Source: Escherichia phage ECML-134
Length of the DNA stretch: 64,000 bases
Sequence record: JX128259
Direction: 5' to 3' (one strand)
Shown here: positions 7,494-36,673 of the stretch, piece after piece
How positions within the stretch are numbered: the first letter of the stretch is position 1
Layout of the letters: each line of letters opens with the position of its first letter
Notes under the pieces: model-generated
What the model saw: the letters and a program-made list of their open reading frames with translations, nothing else
What the model was told of the DNA's origin: nothing
Databases searched by the model: none
Translations under genes and position numbers: made by a program

Positions 7494-7802
7494 TTAGTCT
7501 TCTATGATATCCCTATCATATCCAAGTGAAATGAGAGTTTCTTTGAAGTGTTTAATGTTCTTTTGTCTAGAATCATTAATGAAAATGACTGGATAACGAA
7601 TGTTAAGAGATGTGAATCCAGCGCGTTTAGCAAGAGATACAATCAGTGGACGATCATACTCAATCTTACCGTTATTTGTAAGAACTTTATAGAAAGTAAA
7701 AGGAGCATTAAGCTCCTTTAGAAGTTTTGTAACTGATTGACATCCAGGACAACGACCTACTTCATCTGGAATTCCATAGACTTCAATCTTATTTTGTTTC
7801 AC
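7494..7802 (-). CDS. nrdH: Glutaredoxin-like protein NrdH
   Basis: 102 aa; CPGC redox motif near N-terminus; position upstream of nrdG/nrdD as in T4. Confidence 0.75.
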   Translation of the reverse strand: MKQNKIEVYGIPDEVGRCPGCQSVTKLLKELNAPFTFYKVLTNNGKIEYDRPLIVSLAKRAGFTSLNIRYPVIFINDSRQKNIKHFKETLISLGYDRDIIED

Positions 7803-7804
7803 AA

Positions 7805-8017
7805 CTATTCCTTACTAAGAGCAGCATTCAGCTTGTTAGTAATTTTATCCAGACGCTCATTAAACTCACTAGAAGATAAGCCCTTTTCTGGAGAAATCAA
7901 ACTAATCACGAAAAATATAGCAATAAAAGGAATAAGGAAAATAGCTCCAACTGCCATAAACAGAAAGAATGTTACAGTTGTAAGAAAATCAGCTAAACCT
8001 TTACGAAATTTATACAT
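7805..8017 (-). CDS. Hypothetical membrane protein
   Basis: 70 aa ORF with a long hydrophobic segment (VTFFLFMAVGAIFLIPFIAIFFVISLI). Confidence 0.45.
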   Translation of the reverse strand: MYKFRKGLADFLTTVTFFLFMAVGAIFLIPFIAIFFVISLISPEKGLSSSEFNERLDKITNKLNAALSKE

Positions 8018-8135
8018 TTACATTTACCTTTAATTGATTAACCAAGCATTGATAAGCACTAAACTATATTGGGAATAAAATTCTGGACCAAAATGAAAAA
8101 TCATATCATTTATAGTATCCATAATGTAATTCAAT

Positions 8136-8606
8136 TTAATCATGTTTCCACACCCCATCGGTATTTGACCAAAGCCGCTGATTATCTGATCCTCGCCACA
8201 GCTTTTTGGTCGGAAGATTTTTCTCATACTTCCCATCAATAATAACATCAACATATTTAAGCATTTCTAGTTGTTTAATATCTTCAAACTTATATCCTGT
8301 CCACAACCAAATGCTTTTATTGGGATAAAGATTTTTTACTGTTTGAACAATGCAATGAATAACATCTCGGTTATCAGGATAGAGAGGGTCACCTCCAGTT
8401 ATAGTCAATCCTTCTATATAATCATTATTCAAACATTCAATTAATTGTTCTAGTGTTTCACCAGTGAATGGAATACCATTTCTAGCATTCCATGTTGATT
8501 TATTATAACACCCTTCACATTTATGCAAACAACCTGTAACGAAAAGAACGGTCCTGCAGCCAGGACCATTAATAAAATCGCAAGGATAAAATCTATCATA
8601 ATTCAT
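8136..8606 (-). CDS. nrdG: Anaerobic ribonucleotide reductase activating protein (radical SAM)
   Basis: 156 aa; CxxxCxxC cluster motif (GCLHKCEGCYN); 4-nt overlap with nrdD. Confidence 0.9.
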   Translation of the reverse strand: MNYDRFYPCDFINGPGCRTVLFVTGCLHKCEGCYNKSTWNARNGIPFTGETLEQLIECLNNDYIEGLTITGGDPLYPDNRDVIHCIVQTVKNLYPNKSIWLWTGYKFEDIKQLEMLKYVDVIIDGKYEKNLPTKKLWRGSDNQRLWSNTDGVWKHD

Positions 8607-10420
8607 TGGTGTTTAACCCTATGCATGATTTCTTTATTTTTGCCGAGATTAAATCCGCGTTCGTTCGGATTTCCCAAATAACCACACGTTCTTCTTATTG
8701 TGTTCATCTTTTTAGGATCAGTTTCTCCACAGATAGAACAAACAAATCCGTTTTCAGTAGGAGTCATTTCATGGGTGCTTCCGCATGTAAAACATTTATC
8801 TACTGGCATATTAACACCAAAATAATCTAAATGTTGTGCAGCATAATCCCATACAGCCTCAAGGCCTTTTAGGTTATTTTTCATATCAGGAAGTTCAACA
8901 TAAGAAATGTGACCACCTGTCGCAATGAAATGATATGGCGCTTCACGAGAAATCTTTTCAAACGGAGTAACATTTTCTTCTACTGAAACGTGGAAACTGT
9001 TAGTGTACCAGCCTTTATCGGTAACATCTTTTACGCTTCCATATTTTTCTGTATCAAGTTTACAGAAGCGATAACAAAGGTTTTCAGCAGGAGTCGAATA
9101 TAAACTAAAAGCAAATCCAGTTCTTTCAGTCCACTGTTTAAGATGAGCATTCATTTTAGTTAAAATTTCTCGTCCAATATCACGACCGACAAGAATATTC
9201 AATTCGTGAATACCAATGTATCCTAGGGACACTGAACTTCTACCGTTTTTAAATAACTCAATTATGTCGTCATCAGGTTTAAGACGAACCCCGAATGCAC
9301 CTTCTTGGTAAAGAATAGGAGCAACAGTAGCTTTAACTCCTTTTAAGGAACTAATTCTACACATCAAAGCTTCAAAACACAAATCCATACGTTCATTGAA
9401 TAATTCAACAAATTTCTGTTCGTTAAATTGTGTTCCAATATAAGAATCTAATGCAATGCGAGGAAGATTCAGTGTTACAACACCAAGATTATTACGTCCA
9501 TCAAGAATTTCATTACCAGTCGAATCTTTCCATACGCTCAAGAAACTACGGCAACCCATTGGAGAAACAGGAATAGATGAACCGGTGATAGCTTTATTAT
9601 TCTTAACTGAAATAATATCAGGATACATCCTTTTGCTTGCACACTCTAGAGCAAGCTGCTTAATATCATAGTTCGGATCGTCTTTATAAAGATTAACGCC
9701 TTCTTCAACGAACATAACAAGTTTAGGAAAAATAGGAGTTATCCCATCACGACCAAGACCTTTAATACGATTTTTCAGAATTGCTTTCTGAATCATTCGT
9801 TCAGTCCAGTCAGTTCCCGTACCAAATGTAATTGTTACAAAAGGAGTCTGTCCGTTTGAACTAAAGAGAGTATTTACTTCATATTCATAAGCTTGGAATG
9901 CATCGTATACGTCTTTTTCTGTTTTAGATTGAGCATAATTCAACGCATCAGCGATTTGCCATTTTTCTGCATCCTCAATATGTTTTGCATAGGTGCGTTT
10001 AACATAAGGAGAAAGTACTTTATCTACATTCGCAAAAGTCGTTCCGCCATATTGATGGGAAGCAACCTGTGCAGTAATTTGTGCCATAATTGCAGTAGCA
10101 ACACCGATTGATTTAGGAGTTTCAATCTGTGCATTACCGAGCTTAAATCCGTTCTCAAGCATTCCTTTTAAATCTACTAAACAGCAATTAGTAAATGGAA
10201 GAGCAGGGGAATAATCAATATCGTGCACGTGAATAATTCCGCTTTCATGCGCTTTCATAATAAAAGACGGGACCATATTTTTGGCAATGTGTTTAGACAC
10301 AATACCAGCCATAAGGTCCCGTTGAGTTGGAAAAACACGAGAATCTTTATTAGCATTCTCGTTTAAAAGGTCTTTATTAGTTTTATGAATCAATCCTTCA
10401 ATTTCTTTTTCAATTGTCAT
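8603..10420 (-). CDS. nrdD: Anaerobic ribonucleoside-triphosphate reductase (class III), uninterrupted
   Basis: 605 aa continuous ORF; C-terminal glycyl-radical motif RRTCGYLG and zinc-ribbon cysteines; no intron interruption visible. Confidence 0.9.
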   Translation of the reverse strand: MTIEKEIEGLIHKTNKDLLNENANKDSRVFPTQRDLMAGIVSKHIAKNMVPSFIMKAHESGIIHVHDIDYSPALPFTNCCLVDLKGMLENGFKLGNAQIETPKSIGVATAIMAQITAQVASHQYGGTTFANVDKVLSPYVKRTYAKHIEDAEKWQIADALNYAQSKTEKDVYDAFQAYEYEVNTLFSSNGQTPFVTITFGTGTDWTERMIQKAILKNRIKGLGRDGITPIFPKLVMFVEEGVNLYKDDPNYDIKQLALECASKRMYPDIISVKNNKAITGSSIPVSPMGCRSFLSVWKDSTGNEILDGRNNLGVVTLNLPRIALDSYIGTQFNEQKFVELFNERMDLCFEALMCRISSLKGVKATVAPILYQEGAFGVRLKPDDDIIELFKNGRSSVSLGYIGIHELNILVGRDIGREILTKMNAHLKQWTERTGFAFSLYSTPAENLCYRFCKLDTEKYGSVKDVTDKGWYTNSFHVSVEENVTPFEKISREAPYHFIATGGHISYVELPDMKNNLKGLEAVWDYAAQHLDYFGVNMPVDKCFTCGSTHEMTPTENGFVCSICGETDPKKMNTIRRTCGYLGNPNERGFNLGKNKEIMHRVKHQ

Positions 10421-27745: not shown

Positions 27746-28011
27746 TAGTATTTTTCCTCTGGTTGGAACACTGCACGACAAGCCCACATACTGGCTTCTT
27801 TGAGTTTCGTTTTAGCAATAGTTAACTGATCGAGGCTTTCAGCATAATTCTTCGCGAATTCACAGTCTTCACAATTATCTAGTGCTTCCCAGAATTCATC
27901 GTATAAAGCGTCAAAGATAAGTCCTAAACGAATTTCAGCGTCTTTGATAGCATTCACTTTACCGATTTTCTCTTCAGTATGCGGCTTATAACCTTTAATG
28001 TCTTCAATCAT
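27745..28011 (-). CDS. Hypothetical small protein at the vs.4 position (Acb2 candidate by synteny only)
   Basis: About 88 aa from start MIEDIKGY; T4 vs.4 is the described anti-CBASS sponge Acb2; no sequence comparison possible here. Confidence 0.35.
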
Positions 28012-28225
28012 ATTTGACTTCCTCACCAGTACATAAATCATATTCAACTAAACGAATAGGTTCATGAATGCCATATCCCTGAACAGAAATTTCTGTCGTA
28101 GGATAAATTCCATCAATATCGCCCATATTCCACGCTTCATTAAATTGCTGTTCGCCTGAATTACTAAACCACTCGGCGAAAGCATTTAGCACATCTTCAG
28201 AACCTTCAATAATTATCTTTGCCAT
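28004..28225 (-). CDS. Hypothetical acidic protein
   Basis: 73 aa ORF. Confidence 0.4.
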   Translation of the reverse strand: MAKIIIEGSEDVLNAFAEWFSNSGEQQFNEAWNMGDIDGIYPTTEISVQGYGIHEPIRLVEYDLCTGEEVKYD

Positions 28226-28587
28226 TACAAACTCTCGGTAAAGGTACGAGCGATAACGTCGCGCTGCTGTTCCGGAGTCAGAGAGTTAAAGCGAACTGCA
28301 TAACCGGATACACGGATGGTCAGCTGCGGATATTTTTCCGGATGCTTAACTGCATCTTCCAGAGTTTCACGACGCAGAACGTTAACGTTCAGGTGTTGAC
28401 CACCTTCAATTTTAACTGTAGGCTGTGGCTCAATTTCAATTTCACGGGCATGCAAACCATAGAAAATTTCTGGGTCTACAAAAGAGTCCTCTTTAAAGGT
28501 TTTAGAGACAATAATTCGTGCTTGAATACCATCTTCAAAATAAATAGTACCTTTATGTGTGCCTTCAAGAATTTGATATGCTTTCAT
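28225..28587 (-). CDS. Autonomous glycyl-radical cofactor (GrcA/YfiD-like; T4 Y06I-like)
   Basis: 120 aa; C-terminal [60 protein letters not shown] carries the RVSGY glycyl-radical motif and matches my recollection of E. coli GrcA. Confidence 0.85.
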
Positions 28588-28594
28588 ATAAACC

Positions 28595-28924
28595 TCAATT
28601 AGAAAATAAATTTATCCAAGATTGTTCTTTAATTAAAAACGGCTCAGAATCATATGCCATTAAACTTTGCGTAATTAATCCTTTAAAAGGTCCATCAATA
28701 AATTCCATGGTAAAATATGGAATTTTATTCATTAGCCGTGCATTAGGAGCAGTGCACAAAACTCTGCATCCTTTGAATACGCCTTTTTGTAATTTGTATT
28801 GCTTAGGATAAAATTCGCTCAAAATGTTATTGTTTGCTAAAATTTCAAAATGATTCACCAATTTATTTTTAATAGTTTTTGGCGAAAAATAAAGATATTC
28901 GAAAAGCTGAGTGTCTGTCATCAT
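28595..28924 (-). CDS. Hypothetical protein
   Basis: Start at [10 protein letters not shown]; overlaps stop of upstream P-loop gene. Confidence 0.4.
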
Positions 28925-36573: not shown

Positions 36574-36577
36574 AAAT

Positions 36578-36664
36578 TGGTGGGGAGTGGTGGAGTCGAA
36601 CCACCCGAGTCGCAATGACAATGGATTTACAGTCCACACCGCTACCTCTACGGGATAACTCCCC
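36578..36664 (-). tRNA. tRNA-Tyr (anticodon GUA), class II with long variable arm
   Basis: Manual fold: acceptor GGGGAGT/ACTCCCC, anticodon stem GTGGA/TCCAT with loop CTGTAAA, T-arm GGTGG-TTCGACT-CCACC, 87 nt, encoded CCA. Confidence 0.7.
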
Positions 36665-36673
36665 AAATTAATT

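Follow-up and report, generated by a model that had tools for sequence, protein, structure and literature searches.

Two small proteins, YfiD (GrcA) of Escherichia coli and Y06I of phage T4, are known as spare parts for pyruvate formate-lyase (PFL). According to the account of Wagner et al. (2001) given in PMC8683613, a glycine radical is installed in both proteins by the PFL-activating enzyme, and the activated proteins bind PFL that has been cleaved by O2 at G734, whereby its activity is restored. The gene of the T4 protein, vs.6 (T4p117, NP_049730.1), carries the RefSeq name 'autonomous glycyl radical cofactor GrcA', and vs.6 was previously noted as a conserved Gly_radical open reading frame (ORF) of T4-like genomes (PMC1524935). 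Host-phage intragenic recombination has been described for the cyanophage genes psbA as well as psbD (Zeidner et al. 2005; Sullivan et al. 2006, PMC1484495). Here, the vs.6 orthologue of Escherichia phage ECML-134 was analysed in a stretch of 64,000 nt (sequence record JX128259; hereafter the window), for which a preliminary description made from the sequence had reported a GrcA-like protein with a host-identical C-terminus. It is considered likely that vs.6 is an old phage homologue of grcA, that its 3′ half was overwritten by host-to-phage gene conversion, and that this happened more than once. The gene and its parts are located in the window as follows:

28225-28587, minus strand: coding sequence of the vs.6/Y06I orthologue, a GrcA-like autonomous glycyl-radical cofactor (120-aa ORF; assigned by synteny and by Pfam and PDB matches)
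28410-28587, minus strand: 5′ part of the ancestral phage type, AT-rich, a diverged homologue of the GrcA N-terminus (gene nt 1-178, i.e. codons 1-59 and the first base of codon 60)
28238-28409, minus strand: host-derived conversion tract (gene nt 179-350; 172/172 to E. coli grcA)
28225-28237, minus strand: phage-type 3′ end (TESL-stop) and right-hand tract limit (last 13 nt, gene nt 351-363)
28303-28305, minus strand: predicted glycyl-radical codon Gly95 (GGT) in the motif RVSGY (gene nt 283-285; motif found in the translation)

Residues 61-120 of vs.6 (EGGQHLNV...TFTESL) were identical at 60 of 60 positions to residues 68-127 of E. coli GrcA (L001:402-785), so that the host identity of the C-terminal approximately 60 residues, which the preliminary description had suggested, was confirmed. 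The same description had taken the N-terminal half to be phage-specific. This holds insofar as the N-terminal 60 residues are diverged, with about 30% identity to GrcA, and the protein is 7 residues shorter than the 127-aa GrcA; the half is, however, no novelty, as it is a homologue of the GrcA N-terminus in the alignments to the NCBIfam profile and to PDB entry 6owr. At the nucleotide level, gene nt 179-350 were aligned to E. coli grcA with 172 of 172 bases identical, and this tract makes up 172 of the 185 bases of the vs.6 3′ half. To the 5′ side of nt 179 the identity to grcA dropped abruptly to background, and no match of the 5′ part to E. coli was obtained by blastn. On the other side, four synonymous differences from grcA (nt 351, 354, 357 and 358) were located within the last 13 nt of the gene. 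The left limit of the tract coincides with the start of the conserved domain block and the right limit lies a few bases before the stop codon; the tract covers nearly the whole region in which the phage and host copies are similar enough to pair. The GC content of the tract was 0.49, compared to 0.34 in the 5′ half and 0.35 in the window, and at third codon positions (GC3) 0.43 versus 0.20 in the 5′ half. The tract was present with 100% identity in roughly 36-45% of 5426 complete E. coli genomes and with at least 99% identity in 5156 of them. When the whole window was compared with this collection by megablast, the tract was the only chromosomal match. The only other match was found for a tRNA region at 36575-36667, where a tRNA-Tyr matched 219 E. 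coli plasmid records with about 89.5% identity.

For the comparison with other phages and hosts, a 189-nt core was aligned for 80 IMG/VR phage homologues and 80 enterobacterial grcA genes. Identities to E. coli grcA of 179-183/189 were restricted to Tequatrovirus and Mosigvirus, and all other phage homologues reached 119-158/189, among them Krischvirus MIZ2, which was grown on E. coli B (140/189), and the L009-L013 phage group (140-148/189). Enterobacter phage EC-F2, a Pseudotevenvirus, encodes the same 61 residues as E. coli GrcA with a DNA identity of only 155/189 (82%). As an explanation of the identity, protein constraint was rejected, since the same peptide is encoded at 82% nucleotide identity in this phage; by our own arithmetic, a perfect run of 172 nt at 82% identity per site has a probability of 0.82^172, or about 1e-15. 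Per 172 sites, the tract differed at 2 positions from Escherichia sp. MOD1, at 14 from Citrobacter amalonaticus, at 24 from Klebsiella and at 29 from Salmonella, and pflB was only 80% identical to it. These comparisons point firmly to E. coli as the donor of the tract. They likewise indicate a transfer from host to phage, because the tract is host-like in composition and the E. coli copy lies in a syntenic ung-grcA-eamB gene with graded divergence across the Enterobacteriaceae, and because in unconverted phage relatives the 3′ half is richer in AT and codes for another peptide.

Such unconverted vs.6 homologues were found in the L009-L013 group, in Pseudotevenvirus and in Krischvirus, and these sister lineages carry the ancestral phage-type 3′ half with other amino acids (LTKETLEDAVQHPEK...TKEM). 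In the L009-L013 group, the N-terminal half is 72-80% identical to that of the window at the nucleotide level and the phage-type 3′ half is retained; the latter shares about 78% of its bases with host grcA, exact matches extending over at most 26 nt, which was presumably sufficient for homeologous pairing. The alignments support the patching, by conversion, of a grcA homologue that the phage already had, rather than a fusion or a de novo capture, because the N-terminal half aligns to the GrcA model and to the YfiD structure as well.

The age of the tract was estimated by comparing Tequatrovirus (the window, T4, PST and others) with Mosigvirus, the RB69 group (SA35RD, Shf125875, F27, MM02 and Av-05). 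Nucleotide identity between the two genera was about 71-73% in the flanking genes vs.7, vs.5 and vs.4, 87-90% in the vs.6 5′ half, 96.5-100% in the tract (nt 179-350) and 77% in the last 13 nt of vs.6. Synonymous divergence (dS, Nei-Gojobori) amounted to about 2.2 in vs.5, 1.75 in vs.4, 0.41-0.45 in the vs.6 5′ half and 0.075-0.088 in the tract, the value of the tract being about 5-fold below that of the 5′ half and more than 20-fold below those of the flanking genes. For the 5′ half, non-synonymous divergence (dN) was 0.049 and 7 differences were fixed between the genera; for the tract, dN was about 0 and no fixed difference was counted. In the direct comparison of the window with Mosigvirus L008, 19 of 178 sites differed in the 5′ half and 0 of 172 in the tract (Fisher P 3e-5). 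Among about 645 phage records, the 152 with 80-90% identity in the 5′ half all had at least 90%, and nearly all at least 95%, identity in the 3′ half. The comparison dates the tract as far younger than the split of the genera and the exchange as recent on the scale of E. coli species diversity.

The preliminary description had suggested a fairly recent capture or ongoing gene conversion from the host. Exchange with the host was borne out by the 172/172 identity, the sharp boundaries, the E. coli specificity of the tract and its low dS; a recombination tract was found in the nucleotide alignment to grcA and T4 Y06I, the divergence typical of long-separated homologues was not seen, and the synonymous and non-synonymous comparison of the two halves (dS 0.41 and dN 0.049 in the 5′ half) separated them in the manner described above. 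The sharp tract of near-identity, the diverged but homologous remainder, the low dS and host-like composition of the tract, the unconverted sister lineages and an identifiable donor, by which a gene-conversion mosaic is recognised, were all found at this locus. Besides the tract, the vs.6 5′ half (28410-28587) was itself much less diverged between the genera than vs.5 (28004-28225), vs.4 and vs.7 (about 28595-28924). This suggests a later phage-phage exchange of the whole of vs.6, possibly seeded by the shared perfect tract, or an unusual synonymous constraint.

A parallel case was found in Klebsiella phages of the genus Jiaodavirus (KPV15 = L028, KY000080.1; phiA85), which carry the same chimeric vs.6 with a GC-rich 3′ half and the same left and right limits. 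The Klebsiella-type allele was present in about 143 Klebsiella phage records. As the 80-species host panel was without K. pneumoniae, phiA85 appeared there as only 88% host-like, and grcA of the K. pneumoniae complex was obtained via a protein search. Against this gene, KPV15 showed a perfect run of 140 nt and 161/164 identity, compared to 158/189 against E. coli in the 189-nt core, and phiA85 showed 155/164. The Klebsiella-specific residues LLDAVEH are reproduced in the Jiaodavirus phages, and LEDAVKH is found in the E. coli phages; the Jiaodavirus vs.6 5′ half is about 72-75% identical to that of the window. The Jiaodavirus tract is read as an independent event with the K. pneumoniae complex as donor, and conversion from host to phage at vs.6 is indicated to have taken place at least twice, each time from the genus that the phage infects. 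The vs.6 of KPV15 (L028 1501-1859) is one base short, with 359 nt matched and the ORF split to 80 aa, and represents either a frameshifted pseudogene or a sequencing error of the record.

Within the E. coli-type tract, the right-hand limit varied among close relatives, being located at nt 350 in the window, at about nt 354-356 in T4 and at about 353 in L005 and L008, with mosaic states in others. The bases at nt 351/354/357/358/360 were as follows:

window: C-G-T-T-G
T4: T-A-T-T-G
L005: T-G-T-C-G
L006: T-G-C-T-G
Mosigvirus: T-G-T-C-A

The Mosigvirus 3′ ending was identical to that of the unconverted phage L016. The number of private changes in the tract ranged from 0 to 6 per phage, and several lineages in both genera were still 172/172 to the major E. 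coli allele. In four sampled E. coli genomes with minor alleles, the variable tract sites were 192G, 219C and 282A, and all three recur in phage tracts; 192G is from O157:H7 and 282A is probably the allele of 485 E. coli genomes. The coincidence of single-nucleotide polymorphisms (SNPs) shared by host and phage had a P of about 0.003 under a uniform synonymous model. By our own count, most of the other phage-private changes raise the AT content, as expected for decay in a genome of 35% GC. These observations hint at more than one conversion event within the E. coli-type tract. The variant tracts of L003, L006 and SA35RD were considered as exact E. coli alleles and rejected as such, since only single SNPs are shared.

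Several points weigh against repeated conversion by the host. No multi-variant phage haplotype was an exact E. coli haplotype, the best matches being 170/172 for L003 and 171/172 for L006, so that the SNPs in common may have arisen in parallel at mutational hot sites; the tract variants of SA35RD occurred in 0 of the 5426 E. coli genomes. The Tequatroviruses PST, pSe_SNUABM_01 and PhiZZ6, for which Yersinia, Salmonella or Citrobacter was the isolation host, still have the tract of the E. coli type, and conversion is therefore too infrequent to track every isolation host. Host DNA would moreover need to outlast the degradation of host DNA by T-even phages in order to recombine, and the selective value of a match to the host is something that we infer. 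Finally, a single captured tract that passed between the phage genera during co-infection would account for much of the Tequatrovirus/Mosigvirus pattern, with no need for the host to take part again.

In its strict form, this last explanation states that a single recent capture or conversion from E. coli occurred in one T-even lineage and that the tract was then spread by recombination between co-infecting phages only. It accounts well for the lack of fixed differences between the genera, for the star-like variation and for multi-variant phage haplotypes that are not found in E. coli, and the low divergence of the whole of vs.6, its 5′ half included, relative to the flanks speaks for phage-phage exchange at the locus. 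It is nevertheless judged clearly less likely, though still a serious rival for the Tequatrovirus/Mosigvirus pattern, as lineages with 172/172 identity exist in both genera alongside others in which as many as 6 private changes are found, closely related phages differ in the right-hand limit, phage variants coincide with variants segregating in E. coli, and the independent Klebsiella-type tract of Jiaodavirus shows that conversion is repeatable. A single acquisition, long ago, in an ancestor shared by Tequatrovirus and Mosigvirus, with purely vertical descent and identity kept by selection, would agree with the same left boundary in all lineages and with the very strong protein constraint (tract dN about 0). 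With such a history, a dS of about 2 (as in the flanks) or at least 0.41 (as in the 5′ half) would be expected, and 0.075-0.088 was observed; this low value and the lack of fixed differences therefore exclude it in practice. The same protein also occurs elsewhere at 82% nucleotide identity, and fewer differences separate the tract from E. coli than separate E. coli from Citrobacter, so that this history is rated as extremely improbable.

An artefact, in which host reads contaminating the phage sequencing overwrote the consensus, was considered because the tract is continued by E. coli DNA in one metagenomic contig and a second contig stops within the tract, which indicates that the repeat confuses assemblers. 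The same sharply bounded tract is, however, present in about 645 independently sequenced phage genomes, the T4 reference included; the last 13 nt are of the phage type, private variants occur inside the tract of individual phages, and a Klebsiella-type tract is found in Klebsiella phages, which leaves very little room for an artefact. That the 3′ half of E. coli grcA came from a phage, which identity alone would allow and for which cyanophage psbA, with both directions proposed (PMC1484495), offers a precedent, is dismissed as next to impossible in view of the host-like GC3 of the tract, its place within a full-length syntenic gene, the graded divergence from Citrobacter, Salmonella and Klebsiella, and the AT-richer, different sequence of the unconverted phage relatives.

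We therefore return to gene conversion from the host as the preferred explanation. The ancestral phage homologue would have paired with host grcA across the conserved 3′ half, and gene conversion would have replaced gene nt 179-350 with E. coli grcA in Tequatrovirus and Mosigvirus. Fragments of host DNA may have served as donors for recombination of the T4 type, which acts on short homologies. Once installed, the perfect homology of the tract would ease later 'updating' conversions, which would keep the phage domain identical to the GrcA of the current host, with AT-biased phage mutation eroding the tract between events. In the infected cell, the vs.6 domain, activated by the host PFL-activating enzyme, would dock onto O2-cleaved host PFL and restore its activity. 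As the domain would have to fit both the host PFL and the host activase, identity to the host sequence would at the least be tolerated and is probably favoured. From these steps it is tentatively proposed, at somewhat less than even confidence, that the vs.6 3′ half is a self-updating module that is re-converted by the grcA of the recent Escherichia or Klebsiella host faster than AT-biased decay proceeds, evolves in concert with the host domain, remains matched to the host PFL and PFL-activase, and so records the host history, and that the shared tract may also be a recombination hotspot between diverged T-even genera. A hotspot at the shared tract would explain why the whole of vs.6 is less diverged between the genera than its neighbours.

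The protein itself was assigned by profile and structure searches. The Pfam domain Gly_radical covers residues 61-101 with 66.8 bits (cutoff 22.2), and no other Pfam domain was found in the 120-aa protein. PDB entry 6owr, the NMR structure of YfiD, was matched with an E-value of 8.6e-42 (residues 22-120 to YfiD 28-127), and residues 58-120 were aligned to PFL 697-759 (E 5e-26). The NCBIfam profile TIGR04365 ('spare_glycyl') gave 153.3 bits and an E-value of 3.7e-45 for residues 20-120 (profile positions 25-126 of 126). The curated cutoff of 170 bits, which is an annotation threshold and holds no functional criterion, was not reached by vs.6 because its N-terminus is diverged and shorter, and the protein is therefore classed with the YfiD/Y06I spare-part proteins and not with the bacterial GrcA equivalogs. 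Of the features that characterise YfiD and Y06I, the small stand-alone glycyl-radical domain (about 14 kDa class), the radical-glycine motif and the homology to the C-terminus of PFL are present. The motif RVSGY was located at residues 92-96, and Gly95 is taken by us to be the equivalent of GrcA G102 and PFL G734. According to literature cited in PMC8683613, the glycine of this motif carries the radical.

In comparison with T4 vs.6/Y06I, the protein of the window has the same length and is identical in 119 of 120 residues, and the DNA is identical at 177 of 178 nt in the 5′ half and at 171 of 172 nt in the tract. The sole residue that differs is residue 73, which is R in the window, as in E. 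coli, and H in T4. The T4 reference (L163, NC_000866) has a private change G218A, corresponding to R73H, within the tract; R is found in E. coli and in all other examined phages. From the 119/120 identity, vs.6 of the window would be expected to repair O2-cleaved host PFL. The preliminary description had likewise attributed to the protein the restoration of oxygen-damaged PFL, and this is backed by the biochemistry published for T4 Y06I, one residue different, as cited in PMC8683613. The vs.6 of the window is furthermore 100% identical to FT_0010 of Escherichia phage vB_EcoM_FT (Tequatrovirus).

The gene order at the locus is as in T4 (vs.7-vs.6-vs.5-vs.4-vs.3-regB...tk). Further features in the window were assigned as follows:

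28593-28596, minus strand: putative Shine-Dalgarno-like GAGG, 5 nt 5′ of the vs.6 ATG, overlapping the vs.7 stop codon (sequence inspection)
28004-28225, minus strand: vs.5, downstream gene, 73 aa, ORF without a family match in profile searches
8136-8606, minus strand: nrdG, anaerobic ribonucleotide reductase activase (Fer4_12/Radical_SAM)
8603-10420, minus strand: nrdD, anaerobic ribonucleotide reductase (Pfam NRDD, 570 bits, and Gly_radical)

The TAA of vs.6 overlaps the ATG of vs.5 (TAATG). The retention of G at nt 354 (GAG) as part of a Shine-Dalgarno sequence of vs.5 was considered, and this idea was weakened by T4, which has the E. coli base A at that position. Codon 54 of vs.6 (28426-28428), in the linker a few codons 5′ of the tract, is hypervariable, with P, Q, T, H and S found among near-identical phages. 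Of the anaerobic-metabolism support set proposed in the preliminary description, the presence of nrdD and nrdG in the window was verified; at a distance of about 18 kb to vs.6, this is a co-occurrence that does not imply a functional unit.

GrcA-like genes are widespread in further phage groups, having been found in T5-like contigs (L044-L070 and L082; 104-122 kb), in the jumbo phages L027, L029 and L030 (345-357 kb), and in L035 and L050, which are probably T4-like phages of Aeromonas. In the 189-nt core, the identity of these homologues to E. coli grcA was an ordinary 63-76%, and a conversion tract was lacking in all of them. The sequence L031 (IMGVR_UViG_2706794630_000006; 173/189 to Yersinia grcA) was considered as a second host-matching phage gene and rejected: its grcA is full-length and of the host type, has ung and grpE-like genes as neighbours together with a fragment of a P2-like baseplate gene (GPD), and the contig represents a bacterial prophage flank. 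Among the metagenomic contigs, the genome-sized, Mosigvirus-like L174 (OCHD01000040.1, 170,927 bp) switches at 7755-9670, inside the tract, to E. coli chromosomal DNA comprising the grcA 3′ end, the terminator, eamB, yfiE and a REP element (1,840 nt, 96.6% to strain SK1144). The contig is probably a chimeric assembly at the repeat shared by phage and host; as phage sequence does not resume in the available L174 DNA, it was not used as evidence for a larger host capture. In the likewise genome-sized, T4-like L175 (OBRH01000009.1, 168,455 bp) the available sequence stops inside the tract at gene nt 331, and the short contig L178 (Ga0079226_10031505) begins within vs.6, at approximately gene nt 136. 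In samples that also contain host DNA, assemblies may break at the tract.

The gene vs.6 and its biochemical role are already known, as is host-phage intragenic recombination as a process, and the interest of the locus is evolutionary rather than mechanistic because the protein and its function have been described. The usual view of T-even phages is that they have essentially no DNA in common with their host. The locus indicates that a strictly lytic phage that degrades host DNA can still acquire host sequence by homologous recombination where it carries a homologue, and the independent replacements in E. coli and Klebsiella phages affect exactly the domain that would fit the host PFL and be recognised by the host activase. 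The pair vs.6/grcA offers a simple, experimentally tractable system for measuring gene conversion from a host to a virulent phage, and the tract may serve as a marker of the recent host genus of a phage. In practical terms, the shared repeat breaks or chimerises assemblies. No prior description of the nucleotide-level, host-tracking mosaic of vs.6 was found in the literature searched; an earlier mention, e.g. in the 2003 T4 genome review, is possible.

Among the known systems, T4 vs.6/Y06I is the closest, with the same position and nearly the same protein; it differs from the vs.6 of the window by the private R73H and by an E. coli-identical stretch that is a few bases longer. E. coli GrcA (YfiD, 127 aa, 6owr) shares with vs.6 the 60 C-terminal residues, the 172 nt, the motif RVSGY and the homology to PFL 697-759, but its gene sits between ung and eamB, whereas vs.6 belongs to an AT-rich phage operon. 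The vs.6 of KPV15 and other Jiaodavirus phages has the same architecture and limits as that of the window, with the K. pneumoniae complex instead of E. coli as the apparent donor. Cyanophage psbA and psbD are likewise phage copies of host metabolic genes with patchy GC content, of which segments are exchanged with the host. Unlike psbA, vs.6 is found in T-even phages of enterobacteria, its host identity is confined to a single sharp tract of 172 nt with 100% identity over one functional domain, and this pattern recurs with two host genera.

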